DNA from: Parcubacteria group bacterium
GTDB lineage: Bacteria > Patescibacteriota > Minisyncoccia > 2-02-FULL-40-12
Direction of reading: 5' to 3'
NCBI GenBank assembly: GCA_016186395.1
Contig: JACPLU010000003.1
Span: 11,883-75,882 of the forward strand
DNA length: 64,000 nt
Shown: one piece after another, positions 1 through 62,743 of the stretch
Layout of the letters: each line of letters begins with the position of its first letter
Numbering within the stretch: position 1 is the stretch's first letter
Position numbers and translations under genes: made by a program
Notes under the pieces: generated by a model
The model's database searches: none
The model's input: the letters and a program-made list of their open reading frames with translations, nothing else
Told to the model about the DNA's origin: nothing

Positions 1-71
1 GAAAAGGGCGGAGGCGTAGGGAAACCGAGTGCGAATAGTGCGTTTACCCGCCTACATTTTTAGATTTTAAC

Positions 72-114
72 AAAAAAAACAGCTGACTGAATTTATGTTT
101 CAATACAGCTGTTA
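72..114 (-). terminator. Rho-independent terminator for the insertion-encoded minus-strand ORF
   Basis: aacagctg(79-86)...cagctgtt(107-114) hairpin followed on the minus strand by an 8-T run (A-run 71-78 on plus). Confidence 0.6.
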
Positions 115-148
115 CCACTACCACCGAAATTAAATTCTGACGGATTTC

Positions 149-376
149 TTAGTCAACCAGTAGTTTAAGGACCTCCTCGTCTTCGTTGTAAAAACCGAGG
201 AGTTCACCGAGATGATTAATCACAGTGGACTTTTGAATCCAGTTTGGAACATCCGTTGCTCCAGCGAGCCTCACTTTCGTGTAGACAACGACTTCGCTTT
301 GTGTGCCTTCCAAAAGAGCCTCAACAGAACATTTCCGAATGAATTTATCACCTTTTTTTAAGTCTTTAAATTTCAT
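149..376 (-). CDS. 75-aa protein of unknown function encoded antisense inside the 23S insertion
   Basis: RBS aaggagga sits 5 nt upstream of ATG (374-376, minus strand). The 113-aa ORF in the track would start inside rRNA sequence beyond the inverted repeat, so the internal start is preferred. A hairpin plus T-run lies downstream at 72-114 on the minus strand. Confidence 0.5.
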   Translation of the reverse strand: MKFKDLKKGDKFIRKCSVEALLEGTQSEVVVYTKVRLAGATDVPNWIQKSTVINHLGELLGFYNEDEEVLKLLVD

Positions 377-1000
377 TGTCTCCTCCTTGAAGTAAAGAAC
401 GCGTTTGTTGAAATAGCAGTATATACTATGGTAGCATATACTTTTGTTTTTGTCAATTGAATCTAAAAATGTAGGCGGGATTTGTCTCATACTTAAGACC
501 CGAAGCCGGGTGAGCTACCCATGGCCAGGATGAAGTTCCGCGAAAGCGGAATGGAGGTCCGAACCCACGCATGGCGCAATATGCGGGGATGAGCTGTGGG
601 TCGGAGTGAAAAGCTTATCGAACCCGGTAATAGCTGGTTCTCTCCGAAATGCCTTTAGGGGCAGCGTCGGATTATGTTAAGTTGGGGGTAGAGCACTGAT
701 TGGATTTCCGTGCCCTTATGGGTAGGTTTTCCAGCCAAACTCCGAATACCAATTTAATTACTCCGGCAGTGAGACTACGGGGGCGAAGCTCCGTGGTCGC
801 GACGGGAACAGCCGTGATCTCAAGTTAAGGTCCCTAAATTAAGGTTAAGTGTGAAAGGTAGTGAAGACGCTCAAACAACCAGGAGGTTTGCTTAGAAGCA
901 GCCATCCTTTAAAGAGTGCGTAACAGCTCACTGGTCGAGCTTTTTTGCGCCTAAGATGTAACGGGGCTAAAACCTTATACCGAAACTGAGGGTTATCTGT

Positions 1001-1108
1001 GGCTCATCGATGCGTCTAAGGTCAAATGACTAAGGACTAAAGCTGAAAGGTTTAATTTTTGGCTTTAGACTTTAGACTCTAGACTTTAGTCGTGACGATG
1101 AGTCACGG
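1001..1108. repeat. 108-bp hairpin element, copy 1, inserted at the 23S helix-45 IVS hotspot
   Basis: Differs from 2087-2194 by a single nucleotide. Imperfect hairpin: gactaaggactaaagc ... gctttagactttagactctagactttagtc. Flanked by ggctcatcgatg / cgatgagtcacgg. Confidence 0.8.
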
Positions 1109-1666
1109 GTAGCGGTAGGAGAGCGCTTCATGTGCAGTGAAGCCTACGACGTGAGTCGGGGTGGAGCGCATGGAGGTGAGAATGTTGGCATGAGTAACCA
1201 CAATCCGCCTGAAAACGGCGGACGCCGAAAGCCTAAGGATTCCTCCGCGATGGCAATCATCGGAGGGTTAGGCGGCCCTAAGCATAAGTCAGGTTTTGGC
1301 CTGGCGAATGCGATGGACAGCCGGTTAATATTCCGGCCCTTCCTTATATTTTTAAGGAGCCCGGAGCTTAGTAGACTTGGCATATTATTGGATTTATGTT
1401 TGTGATATAAGAATGCGTCTTTGGAAAATCCGGGATGCTGTCTTTAATGACGAATTTAAATATTATGAAAACCCTGGTAACAGGGAATCAAGTTGAGCAA
1501 GCTTCCTAGAAAAACTTCTAAAATTATGTATAAGGAGTCCGTACCGCAATCCGACACAGGTAGGCAGCCAGGGAAACTGGTAAGGCGAACGGGTGAATGG
1601 TGGCTAAGGAACTCGGCAAAACAGCGGGCGTAAGTTCGCAATATGCCCTGCCAGCCGTAGATTTTA

Positions 1667-1953
1667 GTTTTTAATTTAGTTATAAAGTATCCATGTACTG
1701 TATTTATCTAATTCAGCATTCTGTAACAAAACAAATTTATATTGGTCTAACCAATGATTTGAAACGTCGGTTGTATGAACATAATGCTTCACAACAGAAA
1801 GCGACCAAAAGAAAAATTGGAGAATGGGTTTTAGTTTATGCAGAGGCATACAGAAATAAGACGGACGCTCAAATTAGAGAAAGAAAGTTGAAGCAACACG
1901 GAAGTAATAAACGTTGGTTAAAGGACAGAATTAAGTACAGTTTATTTGAAGAT
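1667..1953. other. Second helix-tip insertion in 23S (E. coli helix-63 region), bounded by a 16-bp perfect inverted repeat
   Basis: ccagccgtagatttta (1651-1666) pairs with taaaatctacggctgg (1954-1969). Conserved 23S sequence resumes at ggggactgtttatcaaaaacacag. Confidence 0.7.
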
Positions 1954-1956
1954 TAA
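1693..1956 (+). CDS. GIY-YIG domain protein (87 aa) encoded inside the 23S insertion
   Basis: The YIGLTNDLKRRLYEHN motif is a GIY-YIG core. The ORF is in the same sense as the rRNA. Confidence 0.7.
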   Translation: MYCIYLIQHSVTKQIYIGLTNDLKRRLYEHNASQQKATKRKIGEWVLVYAEAYRNKTDAQIRERKLKQHGSNKRWLKDRIKYSLFED

Positions 1957-2086
1957 AATCTACGGCTGGCCGCAGCGAATGACCTCTGGGGACTGTTTAT
2001 CAAAAACACAGCTCTCTGCTAACTCGAAAGAGGATGTATAGGGGGCGACGCTTGTCCAATGCTGGAACGTTAACGGTGATGGTCGT

Positions 2087-2194
2087 GGCTCATCGATGCG
2101 TCTAAGGTAAAATGACTAAGGACTAAAGCTGAAAGGTTTAATTTTTGGCTTTAGACTTTAGACTCTAGACTTTAGTCGTGACGATGAGTCACGG
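2087..2194. repeat. 108-bp hairpin element, copy 2, inserted in the 23S domain IV helix-68 region
   Basis: Nearly identical to 1001-1108. It interrupts the 23S between ggtgatggtcgtg and ctggagcccgaagcgccagtcaatgacggc. Confidence 0.8.
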
Positions 2195-2241
2195 CTGGAG
2201 CCCGAAGCGCCAGTCAATGACGGCAATAACCATAATTGTCC

Positions 2242-2466
2242 AAAGGTGAATCGCATTGCCTTTGTAAAATCCGACTATATCGGTGAACATCTCACTAAGA
2301 CGTGAGACAATACCGAGGCAATCCGTGAAAACGGAGAGTCCGTAGAGACTAAACGTCGGATCCTGAGCAAGCCGAAAGGCTAGTTGAAGGAAAGATATAG
2401 TCCGAACTGCATGGCGACATGCAGAAATGAGCAGAAATGTCTCGTTCCGCCGAGTCTGATTCGGCG
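2242..2466 (+). mobile_element. Small ORF-less group I intron in 23S, near E. coli position 1917
   Basis: Inserted after ccataattgtcc (E. coli ACGGUCC). Carries P7-like core strands gagactaaacgtcgg and aagatatagtccgaac, like the Tetrahymena CAGACTAAATGTCGG / AAGATATAGTCGGAC. Ends in G. Confidence 0.6.
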
Positions 2467-2529
2467 AAGTAACAATGTTGAGCGCAATTCCTTTCCGGGT
2501 AAGTTACGGAACTTGCCCCATGAAGAAGT

Positions 2530-3200
2530 GATTCTTTATGCAAAGTCGGCTTATAACGGTGGAGCCTGTTTCATGATAAAATGGAATAGAGAATACCGTG
2601 GGAAGTTGTCTTGACCTAACTCAAGATTAACCCCGTAACGACTGAGGCGAAAGCCACAATGGCGTTTTTTGAAACGTCATTATACGCCGACCCCTTAGGA
2701 TATTATGAGGAATATCGAAGAATATATTTCTGGATATGTTGATGGCGAAGGATGTTTTACTGTAACTTTTAACAAAAGGGATAAAGCAAAAATTGGTTGG
2801 GAATTAAGACCAAGTTTTTCAGTCAGTCAGAATGAAGAAAGACGACAGGTGCTAGATATTATACAGAAATATTTTGGATGTGGTTTTATTCGAAGAGATT
2901 ATTCAGACAGAACAGTAAAATTTGAAATTCGAGACCACATACAACTTAGAGATAGGGTTATTCCTCATTTTGAGAGATTTCCATTGCTCTCAAATAAACA
3001 AAAAGATTTTGAATTGTTTAGAGAAGTATGCAAAATTATTGATCATGGAGGTCATCTTACAAAAAGTGGATTTATTAAGATTGTAAATTTTGCTTATCGA
3101 ATGAATGGATCTGGTAAGCGTAAAAGAACTTCCCAAGAAATAATTCGAAATCTTAAATGATACTTAAGGTGATGATATAGTCTATAGTCTTAATTTAAAG
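2530..3200 (+). mobile_element. Group I intron in 23S domain IV, around E. coli 1931-1951, carrying a LAGLIDADG ORF; boundaries approximate
   Basis: Non-rRNA block between ccccatgaag and ggaaccactggaggactgtctcagcc. Shares taaccccgtaacgactga and ataccgtgggaagt with the intron at 4694-5437, and has P7-like ggtgatgatatagtc. Confidence 0.6.
2705..3160 (+). CDS. LAGLIDADG homing endonuclease (151 aa)
   Basis: YISGYVDGEGCF is a LAGLIDADG motif. Size is typical of a single-motif enzyme, and it sits inside a group I intron of the 23S. Confidence 0.8.
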   Translation: MRNIEEYISGYVDGEGCFTVTFNKRDKAKIGWELRPSFSVSQNEERRQVLDIIQKYFGCGFIRRDYSDRTVKFEIRDHIQLRDRVIPHFERFPLLSNKQKDFELFREVCKIIDHGGHLTKSGFIKIVNFAYRMNGSGKRKRTSQEIIRNLK

Positions 3201-3473
3201 ATTAAGAAGTTCCGGAGCGCATGAAAAGCGGAACCACTGGAGGACTGTCTCAGCCACTGGCCCGGTGAAAATGCAATGTCAGTAAAGATGCTGACTACCC
3301 GCACCAAGACGGAAAGACCCCGGAAGCTTTACTGTCTCTTGGTATTGGTCTATGAGTTTGGATGCGTAGTGTAGTGGGTAGGATTTGAAGTCCACCTTTT
3401 GGGGTGGATGGATCCAACAATGAAACACCCATCTTTCAGATTTATAGCTCTAACTGGTGACACCCTAGAAGGA

Positions 3474-3780
3474 AAATTTATAAGGAGGAGATTCTATAAT
3501 GCTATTTGAAGGTTCTCCTAGCCCAACATTTGAAGAAGAAGAAAAGTTTGGATTTAATCTATCAACAAAAATTTATGTTCATATTAATTCACCTCTTTTA
3601 GGTGAAAATGGTAATAAGATAGAAAAGAAATTTGGTGTATTAATCCATCTTTTAACTGGAAAACACGCGAGATTCAAATTAGCTGATCAATTTCGAGTAT
3701 ATGGAAGTGCGGCTAATGTGATAAAATTTTTGAGTAGTTATTTTCAATAAATTTCCTTTTGACAAGCTAGTCTTGTCTCT
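3474..3780. other. Third helix-tip insertion in 23S (domain V helix-78/79 region) carrying a sense-strand gene cassette
   Basis: Bounded by ccctagaa (3464-3471) and ttctaggg (3781-3788). Conserved sequence resumes at caggacagtgcctggtggacagtttgaatggggcg. Confidence 0.6.
3499..3750 (+). CDS. 83-aa protein of unknown function inside the 23S insertion
   Basis: RBS aaggaggag 9 nt upstream of ATG. Hairpin gacaagctagtcttgtc immediately after the stop. Confidence 0.45.
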   Translation: MLFEGSPSPTFEEEEKFGFNLSTKIYVHINSPLLGENGNKIEKKFGVLIHLLTGKHARFKLADQFRVYGSAANVIKFLSSYFQ

Positions 3781-4148
3781 TTCTAGGGTTTCATCAGGAC
3801 AGTGCCTGGTGGACAGTTTGAATGGGGCGTTTCCCTCCTAAAGAGTAACGGAGGGGTCCATAAGGTACCCTAGTCCCGGATGGAAATCGGGACGATAGTG
3901 TAAAAGCATAAGGGTGCTTGACTGCAAGGCAAACGTGCCGCGCAGGTGCGAAAGCAGGGTTTAGTGAACCGACCGTGGCTGGTAGGAGCGCGGAAGATTA
4001 TCGGATAAAAGCTACTCCGGGGATAACAGGCTAGTACCGCCCGAGCGTCCATAGCGACGGCGGTGTTCGGCACCTCGATGTCGGCTCGGCTTATCCTGGC
4101 GGTGAAGAAGCTGCCAAGGGTTGGGCTGTTCGCCCATTAAAAAGCTAC

Positions 4149-4621
4149 GCGAGCTGGGTTCAGACCGTTAAGAATCTGAATCATAAATCATGAAACTTGA
4201 AACATCTTGTTTCGGTTTGATTTGGTTTTTTAACAGTCTGAATCCGAGGATATTCAAAAGACATCATTTAACGGCGGCACTATATAGGAATATATAGTGT
4301 GAAGTTGACCATATCGGTGAAATCCCATTGGGATAACACCTAGGGAAGTTTGTAAACTTTATTGAAGTTCTTTTTTGGGAGGTGTAGCTCAAGAGTATTG
4401 TATGATGAAAGGCGAAAGTCGGGGACTCATACAGTAGCGAGAGCACTGGACTCTGGATCCAGAGGTTGCAGGTAAAAATCCTATCACCACCCACCAATTT
4501 TTGAGTAATCAATATTTGGCACTTCAATAAAGTTTACAAATCCCGTAGAGACTATACGTCAGCCACCCTAATTGAGCTTAGCTCAGCGGGTGAAGATATA
4601 GTCCAGTGCATACAGCAATGT
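4149..4621 (+). mobile_element. ORF-less group I intron in 23S at the I-CreI/I-CeuI-type site (around E. coli 2593)
   Basis: Exon gggttcagaccgt | intron | cgtgagacaggttggtcc matches E. coli GGGUUUAGAACGU|CGUGAGACAGUUCGGUCC. Core strands agactatacgtc and gaagatatagtcc are present and the intron ends in G. The only ORF in it (4264-4527, minus strand) looks spurious. Confidence 0.7.
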
Positions 4622-4693
4622 ATGAAACATGCGTGAGACAGGTTGGTCCTTATCTGGTGTGGGCGTTAAGACTTGAGGGGAGCTGCTCCTAGT

Positions 4694-5437
4694 AGAATTT
4701 GCTACTTTAAGGAGTAATCCTTAATGACAATCCGACTTATAACGGTGGAACCTTATTGCAACTTGATTTGTTGATAACCAGAATTATCCTAATCCAATAA
4801 TTCTGGTACAATTTACTTGAGGACAAGATAGTAATAAGACAATACCGTGGGAAGTCATTCTAAAAACGATTTAGCATATATTTCCGGTTTTCTTGATGGA
4901 GACGGAAGTTTAATGTTGCAGATCAAAAAGTATAAGTACAATAAGTCAGGAAAAAGATTCATGGTAACTATTTGTTTCTATCAGGATTCAAGACACGACA
5001 AACCTCTTTATTGGATCCGTAAGATATTCGGGATAGGGTATATATCTAAAAGAAATGACGGTATTACTGAATTAAGAATAAATGGATATTCTAGAGTAAG
5101 AATAATTTTAGAAAAACTATTGCCGTTTATTAAGTTTAAGAAGAAGCAAGCAAGAATTCTTTATAAAGCGAGTAAATTACTCGAAAAAGAAAAAAAACTT
5201 AAAAAGACTTCCATGATTCGACTCGTAGATTACATAGTAAGAATCCAAGAGGAAAATTATGTGACAAGAAAAAAGAGATCGAAAGATGATTTATTAAAAT
5301 TTTTAGGATTGACCCCGTAACGACTCATCTTTAAAATAGATGGATGGCTGTTTTTAAACAGTCATAATATGTCGGCTCCCATCTTTGTCGATGGGATGAA
5401 GATATAGTCTACTCTTCTGGTGACAGAAGAAAATGTG
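4694..5437 (+). mobile_element. Group I intron in 23S inserted within the sarcin-ricin loop, carrying a LAGLIDADG ORF
   Basis: Joining exons cctagt + acgagaggattgg recreates CUAGUACGAGAGGA. The 5' exon ends in U and the intron ends in G. Core strands taatatgtcgg and gaagatatagtct are present. Confidence 0.65.
4847..5320 (+). CDS. LAGLIDADG homing endonuclease (157 aa)
   Basis: LAYISGFLDGDGSL is a LAGLIDADG motif; the ORF is intron-encoded. Confidence 0.8.
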   Translation: MGSHSKNDLAYISGFLDGDGSLMLQIKKYKYNKSGKRFMVTICFYQDSRHDKPLYWIRKIFGIGYISKRNDGITELRINGYSRVRIILEKLLPFIKFKKKQARILYKASKLLEKEKKLKKTSMIRLVDYIVRIQEENYVTRKKRSKDDLLKFLGLTP

Positions 5438-5517
5438 ACGAGAGGATTGGAGTGGGGAAACCTCTGGCGTACCAGTAGTCCTGCCAAGGGCGTCGCTGGG
5501 TATCTATGTTTCCAAGT

Positions 5518-5548
<31 letters not shown>

Positions 5549-5703
5549 ATGCCCCAAGATTAGGTCTTTCTCTCCTGGAAGACTACCAGGTTGATAGGAT
5601 TCAGGTGTAAGCGCGGCAACGCGTTCAGCCGAGAATTACTAATAGAGAAACAATTTATTTTACCTTTTTTATAAATTCACCGAATACATAGTTTAAGAAT
5701 TGA

Positions 5704-5834
5704 AAAGACTAATTTGGCGATAATGCCGAGTGTGTCCCACCTCTGGTTTGTTTACAAGCCTTAATCCATTCCGAACAGAGAAGTGAAATCACTCAGGGCC
5801 GATGGTAGTTCGAGCTTAGCTCGAGCCAGAGTAG
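5704..5834 (+). rRNA. rrf: 5S rRNA, with a roughly 17-nt expansion in the helix III / loop B region
   Basis: Carries the 5S blocks gtcccacct, ccattccgaacagagaagtgaaa and ggccgatggtag, and ends in agagtaggtcgtcgccag. It lies about 55 bp after the 23S end. Confidence 0.7.
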
Positions 5835-6014
5835 GTCGTCGCCAGATTAGTCTTTTTAATTTGCTCTGTCACCAGGTCCAGCATAGCCACGCACCTTTTG
5901 TAAAACAAAAGGTGCGAGAGTACAAAAAATTAGTGCTGGGCTCCCTGTCCTGTCCGGCAGGCGGGGATGCGGGGCTTCTTGCAATAAAACAGATATTCGC
6001 GGTACGATTGAAGC

Positions 6015-6782: not shown

Positions 6783-6791
6783 CCCTGAAGC

Positions 6792-7919
6792 ATGAAACAT
6801 GAGTCGTGCATCAAAAGGTTTAAAGATGTTTCATGTTTCATGTTTCATGATTTGAGAAAATTAGATTGGTGGCTTTTGACCCCTGTACTCGCTTTATTTT
6901 TAGCGAGTCTTTTAAACTTATACGGCATCGGAGGTTTTGATTCTTTCTTTATAAAACAACTTATTTTTGTATTAGTCGGTCTTGTTCTGTTATTATTTTT
7001 TGTTAGTATTGATTTTAGAATCTTTAGGGAATCAAGTATATTACCATCATTACTTTATGTTGCGTCTCTAATATTTTTATTCGGCACTCTATACTCTTCA
7101 GAAGTTCGCGGTATTAAAGCCTGGTTTTTTATAGGATCTTTTGGGTTTGAACCATCTGAAATTACAAAGTTAGCTTTAATATTATTTCTAGCTAAGTTTT
7201 TTTCGAGTAACGGCGGGCAAAGAACTAACCAACCCTTCTCATTGGGGATATCTTTGATATATACCCTAATTCCTATTGGCTTCATACTTTTACAACCAGA
7301 TTTTGGTTCGGCAGCAGTTTTAGGCGCTATATGGCTAAGTGCGTTAATGAATTTTAAAATCAAAAAGACACATATGCTATTTTCGACAGGTGTTTTGGTG
7401 TTGCTTGGTATTGTGATTTGGATTTTTATGCTCGCGCCGTATCAAAAAGCTAGATTTACTGCTTTTTTAGATCCGTTGGAAGATCCGCGCGGTTCCGGTT
7501 TTCAGAATCTTCAAGCTCAAATTTCAGTTGGTTCCGGAAACTGGTTGGGTTACGGTGTACAAAATGCTACTCAAGTTAAACTTGGTTATTTGTCAGAGCC
7601 AAGAAATGATTTTGCATTTGCGGCCTTTGCCCAACAGTTTGGTTTTTTAGGTACTTCTTTGGTCGTAATTTTGTATGGTTTATTTTTATATAGACTGTCC
7701 TCCATAGGGATATTTACAAAAGACCGATTTGTTCATATATTTGTTTTTGGATTTTTAATTTTTATTTCTACTCATTTAATTATTAATATTGGAATGAATA
7801 TCGGCGTTTTGCCTGTCACAGGAATTCCACTATCCTTTTTTAGTTATGGTGGGAGTCATCTATTAACTTTGATGTCTGGGCTTGGCATTGTTCAAAGTAT
7901 AAAGGTTCATACTTCTTAA
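6792..7919 (+). CDS. SEDS-family peptidoglycan glycosyltransferase (FtsW/RodA)
   Basis: Ten-TM SEDS architecture, with ...DFAFAAFAQQFGFLGTSLV... matching the FtsW/RodA conserved block. An alternative in-frame start at 6840 (MFHDLRKLDWW) lies inside a heptamer repeat array. Confidence 0.85.
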   Translation: MKHESCIKRFKDVSCFMFHDLRKLDWWLLTPVLALFLASLLNLYGIGGFDSFFIKQLIFVLVGLVLLLFFVSIDFRIFRESSILPSLLYVASLIFLFGTLYSSEVRGIKAWFFIGSFGFEPSEITKLALILFLAKFFSSNGGQRTNQPFSLGISLIYTLIPIGFILLQPDFGSAAVLGAIWLSALMNFKIKKTHMLFSTGVLVLLGIVIWIFMLAPYQKARFTAFLDPLEDPRGSGFQNLQAQISVGSGNWLGYGVQNATQVKLGYLSEPRNDFAFAAFAQQFGFLGTSLVVILYGLFLYRLSSIGIFTKDRFVHIFVFGFLIFISTHLIINIGMNIGVLPVTGIPLSFFSYGGSHLLTLMSGLGIVQSIKVHTS

Positions 7920-11533: not shown

Positions 11534-11605
11534 GTCGCTAGCCACTAGAAACTAGCCACTAGGAGTTTTTAATCTAGTCGTTAGTCATTAGTCGTTAGTC
11601 ATTAG
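11534..11605. repeat. CTAG/TAG-rich tandem repeats immediately 3' of rpoB
   Basis: gctagccactagaaactagccactagg, followed by tagtcgttagtcat x2. TAG occurs in all three forward frames. Related to the repeat at 23338-23415. Confidence 0.7.
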
Positions 11606-19977: not shown

Positions 19978-20023
19978 CAGAATACCCGCCAACTGGCGGG
20001 TATTCTTAATGAGGAGCGACTTC

Positions 20024-20148
20024 GAAAGGAACCCAGACGCGGAGCCATAGTTGTCGTTCGGGTTGCTTACGTCGTTCGTGTTGAACTTGACCTTGTCGTC
20101 GTTGAAGTTGAAGTACGGCGCGCTGCTGAACCTGCCATCAGCGTCTGG
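20024..20148 (-). repeat. DGR template repeat (TR)
   Basis: 125 bp homologous to 20620-20744. All 15 mismatches are T on plus (A on the coding/minus strand) in this copy. The translated frame is Asn-rich (NFNDDKVKFNTNDVSNPNDNY), typical of AAC-rich TRs. The 70-aa ORF 19963-20175 is therefore not a gene. Confidence 0.85.
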
Positions 20149-20613
20149 AAATTGCTTTTGCCCATCTATAGTCACCGGATATCGAGGCTTGCCACCTTAA
20201 CGGTCTATATCCTCTCAATCCTGAATTTTATTCGGGAGCATCTCGCAAAAGAATCTCCGCTGGGCGGAAGCAAGCAGTAGTCTCCTCAATTTGGCACTCT
20301 CGGAGAATCCGTGAACGCTCCGACTCTGGCCGTTTGATCTCTTTTTTGAAGAGAGAGTTCGGTGACGGCAATCCGAGAGCGATTCTAGTCGGGCTAAAGC
20401 GCCGACTAAGAAACTTCGCCCAGATAAACTGCCGTTCATTAACCTAAGCTCACAGGAAGTATACAAATAATCCAATTAAAAGTGAATATATAAAAAGAAA
20501 AAGAGGGCCACCCACGATGGAACTGTGGATAACCCTCTCAAAAATTTCGCCGAACTCAAGGATCAAGAAACAACGAATCAAAAGATCCAAGTGTTCGAGC
20601 GATCAAGGCCCTA

Positions 20614-21471
20614 CTACTGCGAAAGGAACCCAGACGCGGAGCCAAAGCTGTCGTCCGGGTCGCTCACGCCGTACGCGTTGAACTTGACCCTGACGTCGTC
20701 GAAGAGGAAGTACGGCGCGCTGCCGAACCTGCCATCAGCGCCTGGACTGTACTCATCGCCTGGGCAGTCGATGTGCAACTGTTCCCATTGAATGAGCCGT
20801 TCCGGATGAGACAGAAGCATGCAGTCGACGATGAACGAGCCGAGCCCGAACTCGTGAGGAGCATAGACCACGCGCATCCTTCGCACGGACCGACCCCGAT
20901 GGGTCAGGCCGAACTGGGCTGGGATCAGTAGAAAGTCGCCCTTCTGCTTTTCGCCGATCATCTGGAGCGCGACGGCTGTCCGTTCGGAGAGCCGCAGGTA
21001 TTTCGGGCCGAGCGCGCCTTTGCGGTAGTTGTGGAAGGTGCGGGTCTTTCCGATCAGGTCGAGAACCTTCTCGACAGCCTCGTTGTACGAGGACGCAACC
21101 TTCTCCCACCGCGGAACGGCGAACCAGCCTTCCGCGCCAGCGGGCAGAGCCGGAAGCTCCTTGGAGCAGGCCAGCACCGAACTGGTGTTGAGACCGTTGA
21201 AGTGCTTGGAGAGCTCCACGAGCTGTTCGCAGACCGGCTTCACGGCGTACCCTTGCGGATAGCCGTAGTTGGACTTCACCTCTTCGTTGGCGAAGAACGG
21301 ACTCGCCGTGACGAGAGGTGCCGAGGTCACTTCCTTCTCCTCGACGATGGACTGCAGGTTCCTGGCGACGAAACTCGGCTCGAGCGTCCCTTCCATGAGG
21401 CGGCGCTGGACTTCCCACATGCGGCGGGAAATCGTTCCGAGAGTGTCGTCTGCGACGATGTGAGTCGTCAT
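20614..21471 (-). CDS. DGR target (variable) protein, 285 aa, with a C-terminal VR-encoded ligand-binding region
   Basis: Good RBS aaggagg upstream of the start. The C-terminal 40 aa (...PGADGRFGSAPYFLFDDVRVKFNAYGVSDPDDSFGSASGFLSQ) is paralogous to the TR translation. About 58% GC, unlike the surrounding sequence. No signal peptide was detected. Confidence 0.8.
   Translation of the reverse strand: MTTHIVADDTLGTISRRMWEVQRRLMEGTLEPSFVARNLQSIVEEKEVTSAPLVTASPFFANEEVKSNYGYPQGYAVKPVCEQLVELSKHFNGLNTSSVLACSKELPALPAGAEGWFAVPRWEKVASSYNEAVEKVLDLIGKTRTFHNYRKGALGPKYLRLSERTAVALQMIGEKQKGDFLLIPAQFGLTHRGRSVRRMRVVYAPHEFGLGSFIVDCMLLSHPERLIQWEQLHIDCPGDEYSPGADGRFGSAPYFLFDDVRVKFNAYGVSDPDDSFGSASGFLSQ
20620..20744 (-). 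repeat. DGR variable repeat (VR) at the 3' end of the target gene
   Basis: Matches the TR except at template-adenine positions. It ends 4 nt from the target stop codon. The GC-rich 3' end ctccgcgtctgggttcctttc is conserved between TR and VR (IMH-like). Confidence 0.85.
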
Positions 21472-23415: not shown

Positions 23416-23913
23416 CTAGAATGGTATATCTTTTAAGTCCACACTTGTTTCTTCTACGTCTTCATCTGAATTTGTTGGCGGTTCGTCCTCATTAACTACT
23501 GGTATTTCTTCTGGTGCAACCGGTCTGGTTTGATTTCTTGCTGTTGGGTTTGAGTTTGCCGTTGTTATTGTTTTTGGTTCACCTTGAAATCTCGGACCTA
23601 ATTGTAGATTTTCAGCTACTATTTCTGTTTGGTATCTTTTAAGACCATCTTTTCCTTCATAAGATCTAGTTTGAATTCTTCCTTCTATCATGACTAGCCT
23701 TCCTTTGGTTAAATATTGATTAGCAAGTTGGGCGAGTCTACCCCATAAAACTACTCGATGGAATTCAACTGCTTCTTGTTTTTCGCCTGCCTGGTTGTTC
23801 CAAACTCTATTTGTGGCAATTCTAATCGTGGCTACTTCTTGGCCATTCATTGTTGTTCTAAATTCCGGGTCAGCAGCTAGATTTCCTAGAACGAAAGCTT
23901 TGTTGAGATTCAT
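23416..23913 (-). CDS. ssb: Single-stranded DNA-binding protein
   Basis: OB fold with N-terminal MNLNKAFVLGNLAADPEFR and an acidic C-terminal tail ending DIPF. Confidence 0.9.
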   Translation of the reverse strand: MNLNKAFVLGNLAADPEFRTTMNGQEVATIRIATNRVWNNQAGEKQEAVEFHRVVLWGRLAQLANQYLTKGRLVMIEGRIQTRSYEGKDGLKRYQTEIVAENLQLGPRFQGEPKTITTANSNPTARNQTRPVAPEEIPVVNEDEPPTNSDEDVEETSVDLKDIPF

Positions 23914-23920
23914 GGTTTCG

Positions 23921-23980
23921 ACTAAAGTCAAAAGACTAGGGACTAAAGTTTTGGTCTTTAGACGCTAGACATTAGACTTA
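23921..23980. repeat. Stop-rich hairpin element (gactaaag family) between ssb and rpsF
   Basis: gactaaagtcaaaagactagggactaaagttttggtctttagacgctagacattagac. Confidence 0.6.
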
Positions 23981-24421
23981 TTAAATATTTCCCAATATTT
24001 CTTCTAATCTTTTGTCTAATTCTTCTTGTTTTACTTCTACTTTTTCTTCTTGCAGTCGTGGTATTGGTTTAGGTTTGACAACAAATGTTTTCCTTGGCGC
24101 AGGCAGTTGTCCCTCCTTAATCTTTGTGGTTATTAGACTTCTTGTGATTACGCCTATCATTTTTAAGTCATTTGTAATTTCATTAATACTCGAGCTTGGA
24201 GCGGAAAAGTCGATCCAAAAAAAATCACTTATCCCTTGTTTTCTGATAGGATAAGATAATTTTGTTTTATTGTTTTCGGACACTCTAACCACAGTTCCCC
24301 CGTGGTTACTAATTTTTGCCTCAATTTCTCCTATATTCTTTTTAAACTCTTCTTCATTTAAGCCAGTTCTAAGATGCACAGCCAGTTCATAGTTTTTTGT
24401 ATTAATTAATGTTTCTTCCAT
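23981..24421 (-). CDS. rpsF: 30S ribosomal protein S6
   Basis: NYELAVHL...LSYPIRKQ...GISDFFWIDFSAP follows the S6 pattern (YEI..I....L.YPI.K...G.Y). C-terminal extension present. Confidence 0.8.
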   Translation of the reverse strand: MEETLINTKNYELAVHLRTGLNEEEFKKNIGEIEAKISNHGGTVVRVSENNKTKLSYPIRKQGISDFFWIDFSAPSSSINEITNDLKMIGVITRSLITTKIKEGQLPAPRKTFVVKPKPIPRLQEEKVEVKQEELDKRLEEILGNI

Positions 24422-29624: not shown

Positions 29625-30602
29625 TTAAATTAGTCCCATTTTTTGTTTCACCTCTTTAAGAGTTTTGTTTGCAATAGCAGATGCTTTTTCTTCATGGTCG
29701 CGAAGTAGATCTTCAATTTTGTCCATATCTTTGGAAAGTTCATTGCGTTTTTGTTGAAATGGTTTGAGAAAATCTATTATAACTTCAGCTAAAATGTTTT
29801 TGAATTCTGCATAAGATTTACCATTGTATATATCCTTATCTTCGCCGTGTGATTTACCGTAGAGTAAGTGATAAATCATAATTAAATTTGAAATTGCCGG
29901 TTTATTTTCTGGGTGGTAGTATATCTCTTTTCCTGAGTCGGTAACGGCCTTTTTTATTTTAGCACGAACAGTATCTGGGTCATCAGAAAGAGCAATTCCT
30001 TCATCTCCAGTTTTGGACATTTTTTTAGCCGGGTCTTGAAGAGACATTATTCTAAGTCCTTCTTCAAGGTGGGGTTTTATCGCTGGAAATGTTTCGCCAA
30101 ACAAATGATTAAATTTTTTGGCAATTTCATTTGTTACATCTATGTGAGGAAGTTGATCTTCTCCAACTGGAACTAAATTGGATTTGTAAAGTAAAATATC
30201 GGATGCCATTAAAACAGGATAGTCAAGAAGACCAACATGATTATATTTTGGATTTTTTTCAAGTTGTTCTCTATAAGTTGGTAGTCTGTCAAGCCAGCTG
30301 ACTGATGTAATGGTATTAAAAATCCAAGCAAGTTCAGTATGGGCTGATACATGAGATTGCCGCATGAGGATTACTTTTTTTGGATCAAGTCCTGCGGCAA
30401 GATAATCCAAAACAGTATCCATTACTTGCTGATGATAGATTTTTGGATCAAATGGGGTAGTGATGCCATGATAATCCACCACGGCATAAACCGCTTGTTC
30501 TAAATCAGGGTGGTTTTGAAGTTCAATCCAATTTTTGATCGCCCCCAGATAGTTACCTAAATGTAATTTACCTGATGGGCGGATACCGCTAAAAATACGC
30601 AT
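29625..30602 (-). CDS. trpS: Tryptophan--tRNA ligase
   Basis: Class I aaRS with GKLHLGNYLGAI (HIGH-type) and KMSKT (KMSKS). Confidence 0.9.
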   Translation of the reverse strand: MRIFSGIRPSGKLHLGNYLGAIKNWIELQNHPDLEQAVYAVVDYHGITTPFDPKIYHQQVMDTVLDYLAAGLDPKKVILMRQSHVSAHTELAWIFNTITSVSWLDRLPTYREQLEKNPKYNHVGLLDYPVLMASDILLYKSNLVPVGEDQLPHIDVTNEIAKKFNHLFGETFPAIKPHLEEGLRIMSLQDPAKKMSKTGDEGIALSDDPDTVRAKIKKAVTDSGKEIYYHPENKPAISNLIMIYHLLYGKSHGEDKDIYNGKSYAEFKNILAEVIIDFLKPFQQKRNELSKDMDKIEDLLRDHEEKASAIANKTLKEVKQKMGLI

Positions 30603-30851
30603 AATTAAAAAGTTAAAAATTAAAACTCAAAATTACAAATGAAAAATCAAAAGTTATTTTTCTTATATTTATTATAGTATTTTCTGGGATAATTTACATT
30701 TGACAGAATTGTTTATTCTTTTTCGACAATGTGGAAGCGTGGCGGCTTGGTGTCGGGCTAAAAGCCTGACCGCCGCGCTGGAACGTTAGCGAGCATATCG
30801 CTGGAATATGCGAGCGTGTCGGAAAAGTATAAACGATTCTGGAAGTTAAAG

Positions 30852-32792
30852 TTATACCTCAATTATAACAGGAAGTACCATTGGTCTTCGTTGGGTTTTT
30901 TGGAAAAGGTGCTGACCAATTTTTTCTCTGATTTCTTCTTTGAGGTATGCCCAGTTAATCGGACCGCCGCGCATAGTTTTTTGTTCGATTATGGCACGAA
31001 CTTTTTTTCTAACCTCGTTTAACATGTCTACATTGTCTCTAAGATACACAAATCCACGAGAGATAATATCGGGGCTGGTTCTAATTTTTCCAGATCGGCC
31101 ATCAACCAAAGTTACAATAACAAACATGCCATCTTCAGAAAGCATTTGTCGATCGCGTAAGACGACTGACCCAACGTCACCAATTCCGAGGCCGTCCACC
31201 ATGATGTAGTTGGAGGGAGCAGTTTTTTTATCAATCCACCATTGATCAGGGGACAGATGAATAATTTGACCGTTGTCGGCAATGATAATGTTTTCTTCAG
31301 GAATACCTTGAGCTGTACCTAGTTGCCCTAAAGTGACCATCATTGAATATTGGCCATGGTGGGGCATGAGGAATTTTGGCCTTATTAATTTGATGATTTC
31401 AATTAAGTCATCTTGGTGTGCATGGCCACCAGCATGGATGTCCATCATTTGGTAGTGATAGACTCGAACACCACCTCGGTAGAGCATATCTTTCAGGTAT
31501 TGAACCGAGCGTTCGTTACCCGGAATGACTGAAGAGGAGAAGATAACTGTGTCGCCTTTTTGAACTTGAATACGGCGATGTTCACGGTTGACTATACGCA
31601 TCAGAGAAGCTTCTTCTTGGCCCATGGCGCCGGTTGCGATGACGGTTAAGCGATTGCGTGGGTAGTTGTTGATTTGGTCTTTGGATATCTCGGTGCCTTT
31701 GCCGATTTTAATATAGCCCATTTCTTTGGCAATTTCGATATTGGTTTTAACCGAGTAACCGTCAAACAGGACTTTGCGTTCGTATTTTTCGGAAAGCTGA
31801 ACTAACTGTTGCATACGATTAATCATTGAAGAGAATGTGCCAACAATGATAAGACCGGTGGCTTCTTTGAAAATAATTTCCATGTTTTCGTAGATGGTTT
31901 GTTCTGAAATGGAATGACCAGTTTTTTCCGCACTGGTTGAGTCACACATCAACATGTGGATGCCGCGGTCGCCAAAAGCACGGAGTTTGTCAAAGTCAAC
32001 CGGAACATCATTGAGTGGTGTCGGATCAAATTTGAAATCGGCCGTGTGTACAATGTTGCCTACGGGAGTTTCGATGAATACACCCAGGTCATCCGGGATA
32101 TTATGATTCATGTGGAAGAATTCCACTTTGAAATAGTCTCTCATTTGAACAATATCCCCATCTTTCACGACGTGGATTGGAAGTTTTGGGAGATGCGGAA
32201 ATTCGCTATGGCGTTTTAGAACGAAATTTTTAGTCAAAAGAGCAGTATAAATATCGGGATTGCCGAGTTTTTCTTGAAGATAGGGTATAGCTCCAATGTG
32301 GTCTAAGTGTCCGTGAGTTAGGATAAGACCACGGATATTTTTAATTCGGTCTTGCAAATAGCCGGTATTAGGAATAACAAAATCAATACCTGGCATATCT
32401 TCACCTGGGAACATGACCCCGGCATCAATAAGTATAATGTCGTCTTTATATTCGAGCATATACATGTTCTTGCCGATTTCCCCCAAGCCGCCAAGAGCAA
32501 TTACTTTGAGTGTGTTATCACTGTTGATCAGAGCTTGTCCGGAACTGGTCGAGGGGCCAAACTTGCCGGCTTGTATGCTAGTAGGAGGTAGGCGACGCTG
32601 GCTAGCAGGTTGTGATCGGTGTTGGTGGAATCGATTGCGCATTGTGCGCACGGTTTTCTTAGCCTGTGGAGCGGTGGTGGTTTCGGGTGTGCGAGAGCTT
32701 GGGTTGATAGGGGTGCGAGTGTCGCGACGTATGGGTCGCTGGCTGCGGGAACGGTTAAAGTTCGCCCGCGGAACTTTTGTAAATGGTGACAC
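30852..32792 (-). CDS. rnj: Ribonuclease J (beta-CASP metallo-beta-lactamase), with an Arg/Pro/Ser/Thr-rich N-terminal extension of about 100 aa
   Basis: HGHLDHIGA and beta-CASP motifs. The N-terminal extension is encoded by GC-rich DNA (about 32500-32792). Confidence 0.9.
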   Translation of the reverse strand: MSPFTKVPRANFNRSRSQRPIRRDTRTPINPSSRTPETTTAPQAKKTVRTMRNRFHQHRSQPASQRRLPPTSIQAGKFGPSTSSGQALINSDNTLKVIALGGLGEIGKNMYMLEYKDDIILIDAGVMFPGEDMPGIDFVIPNTGYLQDRIKNIRGLILTHGHLDHIGAIPYLQEKLGNPDIYTALLTKNFVLKRHSEFPHLPKLPIHVVKDGDIVQMRDYFKVEFFHMNHNIPDDLGVFIETPVGNIVHTADFKFDPTPLNDVPVDFDKLRAFGDRGIHMLMCDSTSAEKTGHSISEQTIYENMEIIFKEATGLIIVGTFSSMINRMQQLVQLSEKYERKVLFDGYSVKTNIEIAKEMGYIKIGKGTEISKDQINNYPRNRLTVIATGAMGQEEASLMRIVNREHRRIQVQKGDTVIFSSSVIPGNERSVQYLKDMLYRGGVRVYHYQMMDIHAGGHAHQDDLIEIIKLIRPKFLMPHHGQYSMMVTLGQLGTAQGIPEENIIIADNGQIIHLSPDQWWIDKKTAPSNYIMVDGLGIGDVGSVVLRDRQMLSEDGMFVIVTLVDGRSGKIRTSPDIISRGFVYLRDNVDMLNEVRKKVRAIIEQKTMRGGPINWAYLKEEIREKIGQHLFQKTQRRPMVLPVIIEV

Positions 32793-32880
32793 TTAATAAA
32801 AATCAAAAATCAAAAGGCAAAAGTCAAAAGTATGAATAAAGATCTTTTGATTTTTTGAAGTTTTTAGAGAAATTACTTAA

Positions 32881-32962
32881 TGCCGATGGTGGGATTTGAA
32901 CCCACAAGCCTTACGGCACATACTTCTGAAGTATGCATGTTTGCCAGTTTCATCACATCGGC
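32881..32962 (-). tRNA. tRNA-Leu (anticodon CAG)
   Basis: Cloverleaf: acceptor GCCGATG/CATCGGC, anticodon stem CATAC/GTATG with loop TTCAGAA, long variable arm GCCGTAAGGC, T-arm GTGGG TTCAAAT CCCAC. No encoded CCA. Confidence 0.8.
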
Positions 32963-32970: not shown

Positions 32971-33131
32971 CTGGCGGGCAGGTCTGTCAGCCTGCCCCGT
33001 ACCGAGCTTTGCTCTGGTGCGGGGTTCCGCCATCTGCCCGCCAGCGGAATGAGGATTAATCTGCCAACCTGCCCCGCACCGAACTTTGCTCTGGTGTGGG
33101 GTTCCGCCATGGGGGCAGGAGCTTTTTGGGT
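32971..33131. repeat. Tandem duplicated GC-rich structured element (2 units of about 45-75 bp) next to tRNA-Leu
   Basis: cctgccccgtaccgagctttgctctggtgcggggttccgccat and cctgccccgcaccgaactttgctctggtgtggggttccgccat. Unit 1 is closed by an 11-bp perfect stem, ctggcgggcag/ctgcccgccag. Unit 2 ends in a hairpin followed by agcttttt. Confidence 0.6.
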
Positions 33132-33179: not shown

Positions 33180-34184
33180 CTAAGCTGTTAATTTTTCTAA
33201 ATCTTTAAATCTATCCAAAAGTTCGTTATTACTCGGATCTTGTTTAGAGTTGATTGCCATAAAGTAACTGGTCCATATCGCAAGAGTATAATTAGTAAAA
33301 ATTTTCTGAATCACATTATCTCCTTCTAGGGTAATAACTTGATGGTTTATACTAAGATCGCTAAGTATTTTAACGGCGACATCTAATTTTTTTATTTGTT
33401 TTGGGTTCTCTTGGGGATCAGATAATAATATCGAATAAAAGTTTTTACTAGATTCAAATCCAACAATTTCGTTATGAGCAATACTTGGAAAGTGGTTCCA
33501 AAAAGAATGAGCCTTCGCGTTTTCATTGAAATTTATCTTCCATAATAGAGGCAGTGCCCGCCATTTATAAGAAGAATAAATGATTGGGGTAAGATTATTA
33601 ATTTGATTGGCTATATTTTTACCGGTTATCTCTAACTCTTCGGGTTTCAGTGTATTTTTAAGATCCAAGAGTTGCTTTAAAATGTTATTTTCTGGAAATT
33701 TAAGTATAGCAGAATCATTCAAGAAGGTCAATAGGGCAGAAAACATATAAGCGGTTCCAATCCGTGGCGGTATATTTTCCTGGGGTAGCAGTATAAAACC
33801 GAGAGAATTTTGAGCCAATTCTCTTAACTTTCCTCCTTTTGTTATAACAACTGTTTGAATGCCTTTTTCTATGGCAGATTTGTATGAGGAAATAGTTTCA
33901 TCGGTATTGCCGGACCAAGAAACACATATTACAAGATCATTTTTTGAGACCCAACTTGGCAGTTCGTAGTCGCGATGAATATAAAAATTATAATTCGGGG
34001 TTTGAGTAACTTCACAAAGAGTCATTAGGATTTCTGCGGGCATCATTGATCCACCCATTCCGCAAAGAACGATTTTATCAAATTTTTTTTGATCGAACTT
34101 AACACTTTTGGCAGATTCACTTCCTGTTTGAAATTGTTCCGGGATATTTAAAATTGTTTGGCGGAAGTCCGAATCGTGAATCAT
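33180..34184 (-). CDS. Bifunctional phosphoglucose/phosphomannose isomerase (SIS domain, archaeal-type PGI/PMI)
   Basis: CGMGGSMMPAEI SIS motif and about 330 aa size. Confidence 0.7.
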   Translation of the reverse strand: MIHDSDFRQTILNIPEQFQTGSESAKSVKFDQKKFDKIVLCGMGGSMMPAEILMTLCEVTQTPNYNFYIHRDYELPSWVSKNDLVICVSWSGNTDETISSYKSAIEKGIQTVVITKGGKLRELAQNSLGFILLPQENIPPRIGTAYMFSALLTFLNDSAILKFPENNILKQLLDLKNTLKPEELEITGKNIANQINNLTPIIYSSYKWRALPLLWKINFNENAKAHSFWNHFPSIAHNEIVGFESSKNFYSILLSDPQENPKQIKKLDVAVKILSDLSINHQVITLEGDNVIQKIFTNYTLAIWTSYFMAINSKQDPSNNELLDRFKDLEKLTA

Positions 34185-34262
34185 GAATCATGAAACATGA
34201 AACCTAAATCATGAAACATGAAACATCGTAATGTTCCATATTTCATGTTCAATGTTCCATGG
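34185..34262. repeat. (C)ATGAAAC heptamer tandem array abutting the PGI start codon
   Basis: gaatcatgaatcatgaaacatgaaacctaaatcatgaaacatgaaacatcg, plus inverted copies ttccatatttcatgttcaatgttccatgg. Confidence 0.7.
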
Positions 34263-41368: not shown

Positions 41369-41517
41369 TGTATAAATACTCTTTCTCTTTCTTCGCAAAC
41401 CCCAGCGTGGTTTGCTCAGGGGTTGAGCCCTTCGCTCTTACCCCCATCTGATTTAATATCAGGTGGGGATAAACCATGCCCGCTATGGGCTCAAAACCCG
41501 TTCAAGAGTATTTATAC
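41369..41517. mobile_element. MITE-like element, copy 1 (149 bp), with 15-bp terminal inverted repeats
   Basis: TIRs tgtataaatactctt / aagagtatttataca. Internal conserved blocks are shared with 54558-54741: ctttcttcgc, ctcaggggttgagccctt, catgcccgctatgggctcaaaacccgttcaagagtat. Confidence 0.65.
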
Positions 41518-44288: not shown

Positions 44289-44335
44289 AAACTATGAAAC
44301 TTGAAACATGAAACTTGAAACATTTTGCGCTTCAC
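44289..44335. repeat. ATGAAAC-type heptamer repeats abutting the uvrB start codon
   Basis: aaactatgaaacttgaaacatgaaacttgaaacatt, directly 5' of the uvrB ATG on the minus strand. Confidence 0.7.
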
Positions 44336-44365
44336 GTTTTAGGTTTCGCATGTTAGTCTTAAATC

Positions 44366-52127: not shown

Positions 52128-52139
52128 AAATAATATTTA

Positions 52140-52206
52140 ACGTCTAATGTCTTAAGACTAAGGTCTATAATCATAAAGAAGCTTTAGACATTAGCCTTTG
52201 GTCTTT
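52140..52206. repeat. Stop-rich hairpin element (variant of the gactaaag family)
   Basis: cgtctaatgtcttaagactaaggtct...ctttagacattagcctttggtctttagtc. Confidence 0.55.
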
Positions 52207-53574: not shown

Positions 53575-53613
53575 TATATAGAAATGGGCATGAACTTCGT
53601 TAAAAGACTCGGG

Positions 53614-53700
53614 TCTAGCGTCTAAGGACTAAAGTCTAAAGACTAACGGCTAACGCCAATACCTTTCAGCTTTAGTCCTTAGACATTAAGCTACACATGA
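53614..53700. repeat. Stop-rich hairpin element (CGTCTAAGGACTAAAG family)
   Basis: gcgtctaaggactaaagtctaaagactaacggctaacg...ctttagtccttagacattaagctacacatga. TAA occurs in all three frames. Confidence 0.75.
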
Positions 53701-53836
53701 CCCCGTAGTGAAAATTCGAATGGATTTATCCATGCTATATTTACTAGGGGTTAGAGAGAATTTTAATATAGACTTTCGAATAATTCTTTAAAGAGACGCG
53801 AAAATCATAAAGCATTATTCGAATTTCTACTACGGG

Positions 53837-54541
53837 GTGAAAAAACTTCAAAACGTAAACCTGCCAGCAGCAAAACTTCCAGTTTATAAGGAGACAGAAG
53901 ATTTTAGGTCTTCAATGCACTGGAGGGTTTTTAGAATATTGGCAGAATTCATTGAAGGTTTCGGGTTTATTGCTGACTTTAAAAAGTCGGTCACAATTTT
54001 TGGATCAACTAGAACTTCGGAAGATAATCATTGGTACAAAGAAGCGGAGAAGTTGGGGAAGTCTTTGGCTGAAGAAGGTTTTGCTGTAGTAACCGGAGGA
54101 GGGCCGGGAATTATGGAAGCCGTTAATAAGGGAGCAGCTGAAGGAGATGGAAATTCAGTAGGACTAAATATTCAACTACCCCACGAACAACGTACAAATC
54201 CCTATGTAAATAAACCTAAGGGGTTCCACTATTTTTTTACCCGTAAATTAATGCTTACATATTCTGCTCAAGCTTATGTTTATTTTCCTGGTGGATTTGG
54301 CACTCTTGATGAGTTTTTTGAAATTACAACTCTGATTCAAGAGAAAAAGATTTTTAGTCATATCCCGGTGATTCTGGTGGGTAAAGAGTATTGGTCCCGG
54401 TTAACCGAGTGGATAGACCAGGAACTTTACCAAAAACACAGGACTATAGATAAAGAAGATATGGGAATTTATACTATAGTTGATACGGCTGAAGAAGCTC
54501 TGGCAATAATTAAACAGTCGAAACCCAGGGATGAATTTTAA
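53837..54541 (+). CDS. LOG family protein (cytokinin riboside 5'-monophosphate phosphoribohydrolase-like)
   Basis: VTGGGPGIMEA and PGGFGTLDE motifs. Confidence 0.85.
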   Translation: MKKLQNVNLPAAKLPVYKETEDFRSSMHWRVFRILAEFIEGFGFIADFKKSVTIFGSTRTSEDNHWYKEAEKLGKSLAEEGFAVVTGGGPGIMEAVNKGAAEGDGNSVGLNIQLPHEQRTNPYVNKPKGFHYFFTRKLMLTYSAQAYVYFPGGFGTLDEFFEITTLIQEKKIFSHIPVILVGKEYWSRLTEWIDQELYQKHRTIDKEDMGIYTIVDTAEEALAIIKQSKPRDEF

Positions 54542-54557: not shown

Positions 54558-54741
54558 GTGAATAATACTCTTTTTCTTTCTTCGCCCCCACCTATACAGA
54601 TGGGGGCTCAGGGGTTGAGCCCTTGCGCCACCGCTAAAGCTAAGGCGGCACGCGGTCGCTCTTTCCCAGCTCTTTCTAAAGAAAGAGCTGGGAAAACCAT
54701 GCCCACTACGGGCTCAAAACCCGTTCAAGAGTATTATTCAC
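54558..54741. mobile_element. MITE-like element, copy 2 (184 bp), with perfect 15-bp TIRs
   Basis: gtgaataatactctt / aagagtattattcac. Shares internal blocks with 41369-41517. Contains the extra hairpin cccagctctttctaaagaaagagctggg. ORF 54531-54818 lies within it and is spurious. Confidence 0.65.
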
Positions 54742-62667: not shown

Positions 62668-62743
62668 TGGTCTAACGTCTAAGGACTAAAGCCGAAAAGT
62701 ACTGGCGCTAGTTGTTAGTCCTTAGACGTTAAGCTACACATGA
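62668..62743. repeat. Stop-rich hairpin element (CGTCTAAGGACTAAAG family)
   Basis: acgtctaaggactaaagccgaaaagtactggcgctagttgttagtccttagacgttaagctacacatga. Confidence 0.75.

Follow-up and report, generated by a model that had tools for sequence, protein, structure and literature searches.

Near-identical hairpin inserts at the tips of helices 45 and 68 in a Parcubacteria 23S rRNA gene, and their relatives in related rRNA operons

Results

The DNA analysed here is a 64,000-nt stretch from a Parcubacteria group bacterium (assembly GCA_016186395.1, contig JACPLU010000003.1, positions 11,883 to 75,882; hereafter the window), which opens within a 23S ribosomal RNA (rRNA) gene. The window edge cuts off the 5' part of this gene (1–5650, plus strand; Rfam and Pfam) at about E. 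coli position 590, with helix 25 (H25) upstream of the edge, and a 5S gene follows (5713–5847; Rfam). Two copies of a 110-nt hairpin lie in the 23S gene, both on the plus strand: copy A (999–1108) takes the place of the distal stem-loop of 23S helix 45 (H45), and copy B (2085–2194) takes the place of the distal stem-loop of helix 68 (H68), which is GNRA-capped in relatives. Alignment and a repeat finder define the copies as direct repeats that are identical at 109 of 110 positions (99%), with C1023 versus A2109 as the sole mismatch. The identity between them stops exactly at the start of the native helices. Alignment to the Rfam bacterial large subunit (LSU) model placed copy A in the H45 terminal loop, and copy B where 13 model positions (1891–1903) that form the tip of H68 normally sit. 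The sequences that flank the copies (TTATCT and GTAGCGG around copy A; GATGGTC and CTGGAGC around copy B) contain no direct repeat.

When folded with four flanking bases on each side, each copy forms one long hairpin that prolongs the host rRNA helix, with fold energies of −57.9 and −57.5 kcal/mol (z about −9 to −10; none of 200 shuffles was as stable). In the rRNA-sense transcript the hairpin extends each helix as an imperfect duplex of ~50 bp, whereas the antisense strand folds far worse (−34.8 kcal/mol) because many of the hairpin pairs are G·U in the rRNA sense. The arms are arrays of a 7-nt unit, with GACTAAG/GACTAAA on one arm and GACTTTA on the other (lag-7 self-match 0.74), and all six reading frames of the 110-mer hold stop codons, which leaves no open reading frame (ORF). 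An Rfam scan of the hairpins themselves returned only sub-threshold, noise-level microRNA matches, and the exact 20-mer GCTCATCGATGCGTCTAAGG had no match in GTDB representative genomes and none in JGI metagenomes. Group I intron identity was considered and rejected: copy A has no such match, and the 3' arm of copy B is merely grazed by an Rfam Intron_gpI match (2149–2424) that represents the adjacent LAGLIDADG-encoding intron downstream.

Much of the original prediction, which had been made from the letters of the window, agrees with these data. It had described a stop-rich, near-identical element present twice in the 23S gene, with one copy at the classical H45 hotspot for intervening sequences (IVSs) and the other at H68, and had taken the single-nucleotide difference as a sign of recent copying; alignment, the LSU model and the six-frame translation bear out each of these points. 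The fold of each copy in its 23S helix context, which it had proposed as a check, is a single hairpin continuous with the native helix. Its element of 108 nt was a true duplicate but began 2 nt too late at the 5' end, the full length being 110 nt. It had also asked whether the flanks show target-site duplications, and they do not: the native distal stem-loop has been substituted, rather than the hairpin being placed between duplicated bases.

About 200 related rRNA loci (202 fetched; 1.74 Mb) were used for comparison. FtsW neighbourhoods supplied about 22 related 23S genes, and a search with the H68 3' flank supplied 120 further metagenome loci. In most relatives the tips of H45 and H68 are short and uninterrupted, and some relatives have a hairpin inserted precisely there. 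At H68, the usual form is a short stem with a tetraloop (47 nt between two anchors in about 85 loci), and about 25 loci have a 50–150-nt hairpin at the same tip. At H45, the tip measures 31–36 nt in many loci and is filled elsewhere by hairpins of 67–180 nt or by larger inserts. Both helices are thus found empty, and found occupied, again and again in this clade.

At least 13 loci share conserved hairpin termini, which read GTGGCTCAC TATTG TTCGCCAC at the 5' end and GTGAYGAGC GGTAG CGAGTCAC at the 3' end; the GTGGCTCAC...GAGTCAC termini, which many of the hairpins have in common, pair as a stem of ~22 bp. The sites occupied, which were judged from the flanking rRNA sequence, are H25 (L156/L171, L183, L178, L151, L139/L141 and L167, with GGAGC before the insert and GTGACGGTGTGCC behind it, compared with E. 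coli 542–550), H45 (L201 and L151), H68 (L156/L171, L183 and L196), a domain I helix that by eye is probably H18 (L156, L178 and L151), and the 3' end of the 23S gene, ahead of the 5S gene (L116). The terminus motif is missing from uninterrupted H45 and H68 helices and is therefore a feature of the insert rather than of the rRNA. Across 14 distinct sequences of the terminal stem, 84.6% of cells pair, compared with 74.9% in shuffles (none of 500 shuffles reached the observed value), and ten pairs have changed on both sides, such as position 4, where G·U, U–A and A–U all occur. The covariation score is 0.33, compared with 0.158 for shuffles and at most 0.125 when the partners are slid. In the rRNA sense this stem contains 56 G·U pairs versus 28 A–C oppositions, an excess that agrees with selection on the transcript.

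The termini of the window copies (GTGGCTCA followed by TCG at the 5' end, CGTGACGA followed by TGAGTCAC at the 3' end) correspond to the outer part of the family termini. About 7–8 nt of the canonical inner terminus are missing on each side, and the window element can thus be read as a shortened member of the family. Conserved terminal inverted repeats are a hallmark of miniature inverted-repeat transposable elements (MITEs), and the family has them, with GTGGCTCA(C)...(G)TGAGTCAC found in at least 13 loci and at several helices. All copies with canonical termini in the 1.74 Mb of loci are inside rRNA operons; no copy with these termini was found in the 58 kb of non-rRNA DNA in the window, and a scan of viral contigs with the canonical terminus gave no match.

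The interiors behave quite differently from the termini in that they are wholly different between organisms, although they always consist of short tandem repeats with a period of 7–10 nt. Copies resemble each other far more closely when they come from the same genome than when they come from different ones. One organism represented by three contigs (L089/L098/L188) has four homologous hairpins in a single 23S gene, including H25, H45 and H68, and the identity between its H45 copy and its H68 copy is 89% over 83 nt. In L156, two copies are nearly identical and the one at H68 has diverged, and L178 and L183 likewise have matching copies at different helices. Judged by its 109 identical positions out of 110, the window pair is the most extreme case of this pattern.

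Similar interiors are also found at different helices in different genomes. In one striking case, the H45 interior of L087 (796–879) and the H68 interior of L156/L171 (8835–8918 in L156) share 94% identity over 84 nt, whereas alignable 23S segments of L087 and L156 average about 83% identity and the basal stems are entirely different. Shorter stretches are shared between L201 at H45 and L124 at H68, and between L131 at H45 and L152/L184 at H68. Because interiors match across helices both within and between genomes, hairpin modules move from helix to helix and, on these sequence comparisons, probably also from organism to organism. The contig names of L087 and L156 (Ga0209542 and Ga0209541) look like related JGI metagenome samples.

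In many Paceibacteria-like 23S genes of the comparison set, the H45 insert holds one to three tRNA genes, encoded on the rRNA strand. Examples are L077 (1886–2196), L024 (5327–5401) and L099 (6384–6459), and further cases are L120, L122, L123, L132, L136, L139, L143, L146, L155, L174, L198 and L149. These tRNA-bearing inserts share a conserved basal stem, GGTGATTTCATAAAGGA...TCCTTTATGAAATCACC. The tRNA genes must be cut out, which implies obligatory 23S cleavage at H45 in those relatives. Our literature searches found no report of tRNA genes inside H45 inserts.

Outside the rRNA operon, the window contains about a dozen intergenic hairpins with tandem-heptamer arms, built from at least three families of units. 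The 16-mer core CGTCTAAGGACTAAAG matches 14 times in the window with up to three mismatches, against 0.69 expected, and two of the matches are exact and intergenic. These two lie in plus-strand hairpins with the GACTAAA/GTCTAAG unit, one after a β-CASP RNase gene (53608–53692) and one after an Asp/Asn-tRNA synthetase gene (62665–62737). The same unit forms a hairpin between rpsF and ssb, both of which are on the minus strand (23912–23982), and a weaker plus-strand hairpin at 52133–52203. A further plus-strand hairpin between rpoB and rpoC (11534–11600; genes assigned from the Pfam families of the L001 neighbour genes) has TAGTCGT/TAGTCAT heptamers, the complement of GACTAAN. The intergenic hairpins are about 65% identical to the rRNA element, essentially through the 7-nt unit alone, and lack the GTGGCTCA termini. 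They sit after unrelated genes or between genes that are usually co-transcribed (rpoB–rpoC and rpsF–ssb), and most of them fold better in the sense of the flanking gene, which hints at a role in RNA. No T-run lies behind the hairpins at 53.6 and 62.7 kb, and hence they do not qualify as classical terminators. The shorter loci from other genomes showed no intergenic hairpins related to those in the rRNA, and a scan of viral contigs with the intergenic core gave no match.

The idea that one small mobile hairpin targets both rRNA helices and terminator-like intergenic sites is not demonstrated by this comparison. A core shared with the intergenic repeats had been proposed and is real, and far above chance, as regards the 7-nt unit and the exact 16-mer, but it does not extend to the conserved termini, and copies with canonical termini are confined to rRNA operons in the 1.74 Mb examined. 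Several of the intergenic sites are intercistronic and those at 53.6 and 62.7 kb have no T-run, so that terminator-like is not an apt description of them. Copying between rRNA helices, the other half of that idea, is upheld by the related hairpins at different 23S helix tips in different organisms.

Several other features accompany the intergenic hairpins. Segmental duplication was rejected as the origin of the 53.6 and 62.7 kb copies, as the upstream genes both encode 458 aa but are unrelated. In the regions 53690–53840 and 62729–62885, these two hairpins share a 3' flank, TTAAGCTACACATGA.CCCGT, and behind each copy there is a long-range inverted repeat around about 100 nt, which reaches the start of the next gene. 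The next genes encode a LOG/lysine decarboxylase-like protein (53.6 kb) and a D-Ala-D-Ala carboxypeptidase (62.7 kb), and the arrangement may be a repeated leader structure. A second heptamer family, TGAAACA/TGAATCA, is found at 4177–4245, 6786–6848, 34156–34262 and 44280–44345; one of these hairpins is inside a group I intron near 23S position 2593 and the others are intergenic. A third family, AAAATCA/AAAGTTA, forms A/T-rich intergenic hairpins at 30599–30657, 32786–32844 and 63841–63937.

The host is a Paceibacteria-like bacterium of the candidate phyla radiation (CPR; Patescibacteria). For the FtsW protein encoded beside the rRNA operon, the nearest GTDB species representatives are Paceibacteria/Parcubacteria metagenome-assembled genomes with only 36–45% identity, and among the related loci fetched, identity in conserved 23S segments reaches at most about 85%. 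The gene order 23S, 5S, a 255-aa gene and FtsW is conserved in relatives. The 255-aa neighbour gene is also present on Logan contigs of SRR12113430 and SRR12113424, which end at the 23S end, before the 5S gene.

Besides the hairpins, the 23S gene is broken up by several further insertions and group I introns, and heavily interrupted 23S genes are described as typical of CPR bacteria in a recent survey (PMC11270868). An insert of ~400 nt (47–476, or about 60–475) has a 13-nt inverted repeat, cctacatttttag / ctaaaaatgtagg, at its flanks; an ORF of 113 aa within it (149–490) is on the minus strand, opposite to the rRNA, and has no Pfam match. Between the two hairpin copies is a non-intron insert that encodes a GIY-YIG endonuclease (about 1667–1953; ORF 1693–1956). 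It is bounded by a 16-nt inverted repeat (1651–1666 and 1954–1969), and its position looks like helix 63. The group I intron that starts just 3' of copy B encodes a LAGLIDADG protein (ORF 2705–3160), and three more inserts or introns follow it downstream in the 23S gene. An insert at 3470–3790 contains an 83-aa ORF (3499–3750) with no Pfam match.

Other repeats were noted elsewhere in the window. A 131-nt direct repeat (20019–20149 and 20616–20746; 88% identical) may be foreign DNA, and the G+C content of the region around it (about 20–21.5 kb) is about 0.5–0.66, compared with 0.43 in the region of the 23S gene. A dispersed 42-nt repeat (41471–41512 and 54694–54735; 95% identical) has strong G+C-rich hairpins before each copy, and a G+C-rich, tandem-like repeat of 51 nt (32983–33033 and 33060–33110; 90% identical) adjoins a tRNA gene (32881–32962).

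Discussion

Judged by its termini, the 110-mer belongs to a family of hairpin inserts of Paceibacteria-like CPR bacteria. We favour, with moderate confidence, the reading that it is an ORF-less processing hairpin of the IVS type, which is probably removed by RNase III and has been copied between helix tips by recombination. In their location at a helix tip, their stem-loop of complementary termini and their sporadic occurrence, the inserts resemble IVSs, although H68 is a non-classical site. The terminal stems of IVSs at H25 and H45 are cut by RNase III, and the Coxiella IVS has a 28-bp stem that is cut mid-stem (PMC4990558); in Campylobacter, IVSs lead to fragmented 23S rRNA. By analogy with these IVSs, RNase III would cut the hairpin out of the transcript at its basal duplex, which would leave a fragmented yet functional 23S rRNA. 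Excision is favoured because only an RNase III-sized base is conserved in the family and because the tRNA genes in the H45 inserts of relatives need to be cut out.

At the DNA level, the cassette would be copied from tip to tip either by non-reciprocal recombination (gene conversion), which we prefer, or by ectopic insertion, and the copying would be anchored in the ~22-bp conserved termini. A crossover between direct copies would delete 1 kb of the 23S gene and be lethal, so that only conversion events would survive. Such copying could account for the single mismatch in 110 positions between copies A and B. The interior would meanwhile evolve by slippage of its 7-nt units.

Several points speak against this proposal. 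We know of no IVS at H68, and in domain IV an E. coli insertion screen turned up only a single site that tolerates an insert, with no mention of H68. A scan for the RNase III signature motif in the six-frame translation of the 64-kb window found none. A BLAST search with the 110-mer against the 202 related loci returned only chance-level 12–15-mers and thus no close homologue of its interior, and the termini of the window copies are a shortened variant of the canonical ones. Conserved termini could also simply mean common descent among related elements, and sequence alone cannot tell gene conversion from transposition.

If the hairpins were instead retained, they would form ~50-bp rods on H45 and H68 of mature, unfragmented 23S rRNA, much like the eukaryotic expansion segment ES15 at H45. 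The geometry would allow this, as the hairpins are at helix tips and prolong the native helix coaxially; E. coli ribosomes accept insertions at H45 and H25, which are the sites of eukaryotic ES15 and ES7, and the missing RNase III signature in the window would no longer be a difficulty. A family with hypervariable interiors in which only the basal ~22-bp duplex is conserved is, however, a better fit to a processing site, and relatives have tRNA genes at this very H45 tip, which forces cleavage there. A long rod also seems risky at H68, which contributes to the subunit interface, and inserts in CPR rRNA are generally thought to be removed (PMC11270868). We therefore regard retention as unlikely. 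Misassembly is a far weaker contender. A hairpin that truly occurs at one helix could have been duplicated or mis-joined in a metagenome assembly, as rRNA operons assemble poorly and Logan contigs assembled independently for this organism stop at the 23S end, short of the 5S gene. All four junctions between element and rRNA are nevertheless present, and the 23S sequence that separates them is complete and collinear. The two copies have a one-base difference, and the base pairs of each native helix carry on into the element without a break. The same multi-helix arrangement recurs in independent assemblies of other organisms (L089/L098/L188 from three contigs; L156 and L171), and we consider an artefact highly improbable.

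Movement as DNA deserves closer attention, given that termini are conserved across organisms and sites, the helices that are filled vary from genome to genome and two organisms have a near-identical interior. A MITE-like element that is mobilised through its terminal inverted repeats by a transposase acting in trans, and that targets hairpin tips in rRNA genes and intergenic DNA, would produce these features, and the 7-nt unit and exact 16-mer in the intergenic hairpins of the window would fit as well. Such an element would be expected to interrupt its target, but here the native tip is replaced and no target-site duplication is seen. Canonical termini are restricted to rRNA operons in the loci compared and are lacking from the intergenic hairpins, and the excess of G·U over A–C in the rRNA sense points to selection on RNA rather than on a DNA site. 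One interior module is found on entirely different basal stems (L087 and L156), and no transposase candidate turned up, although no search aimed at transposases was made. On balance a MITE-like origin seems doubtful, somewhat more so than retention, and an RNase III-processed hairpin spread by recombination remains our preferred explanation.

The family shares much with the bacterial 23S IVSs at H25 and H45 of Salmonella, Campylobacter, Leptospira and Coxiella, which are also extended stem-loops of complementary termini that replace a helix tip, occur sporadically among relatives and have a basal duplex of a size suited to RNase III. To our knowledge, no homology links the classical H25 and H45 IVSs of a single genome. 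The family described here differs in having homologous, near-identical copies at different helices, including H68, a domain I helix and the 23S 3' end, in having termini that are conserved across organisms, and in its tandem-repeat interiors without an ORF. REP and BIME repeats (repetitive extragenic palindromes and bacterial interspersed mosaic elements) and MITEs such as Correia or RUP are likewise small, ORF-less, multi-copy hairpin repeats, some of which serve as sites of RNA processing or stability. In contrast to them, canonical members of the family are found in rRNA operons only (in the 1.74 Mb of loci), cause no target-site duplication and have an rRNA-sense signature of selection. 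A further lead comes from the cyanobacterial short tandemly repeated repetitive (STRR) sequences, heptanucleotide repeats that Vioque reportedly described in 1997 inside helix P12 of RNase P RNA. There too, 7-nt repeats are said to be intergenic as well as to lengthen a helix tip of a structural RNA, but the RNA and the phylum are different, processing-type termini are absent and the repeats are retained in the mature RNA.

The closest precedent in the same group of organisms is a survey of CPR 23S genes (Tsurumaki et al. 2024, PMC11270868), in which numerous inserts that are short (<200 bp), contain no ORF and are not introns are reported from 23IS2 and 23IS4, two of its 14 numbered sites. 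These two sites match classical IVS positions, and the inserts there were suggested to be RNase III-type IVSs. Its main text is silent on hairpins, repeats and tRNA, and describes no sequence family that has conserved termini or repeat interiors or that spans several helices. IVSs at H45 are thus known already, as are short inserts without an ORF in the 23S genes of CPR bacteria. Our literature searches found no description of a family with conserved termini and repeat interiors, or of homologous copies at several helices of one 23S gene; in the portions of the literature that were accessible, neither the use of H68 nor an exchange of modules was found described.

A bolder interpretation, which we offer as speculation and consider improbable, is that these inserts are a distinct class of mobile cassettes in CPR bacteria, protein-less and specific to rRNA, whose excised hairpins possibly act in trans on mRNA hairpins. 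Each cassette could combine a conserved ~22-bp processing stem with an exchangeable tandem-repeat interior, and such cassettes could have colonised many 23S helix tips and could move between helices and between co-occurring organisms. Hairpins released at rRNA-level amounts might then find mRNA targets that contain the 7-nt unit, such as the rpoB–rpoC and rpsF–ssb hairpins.

IVSs have been known since 1990, and we know of no explanation for their origin and spread. The family provides one module in many natural replicates at the tips of different helices, along with empty sites to compare them with, and its conserved basal stem predicts a cleavage site. Together with at least one interior that is far more conserved between organisms than the rRNA around it, the replicates and the predicted cleavage site make the origin and movement of IVSs testable. 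H68 and the other helices widen the set of sites at which insertions are tolerated or processed in bacterial ribosomes. The family also bears on how CPR bacteria mature their heavily interrupted rRNA genes, and such repeats inside rRNA genes explain the poor assembly of CPR rRNA operons.

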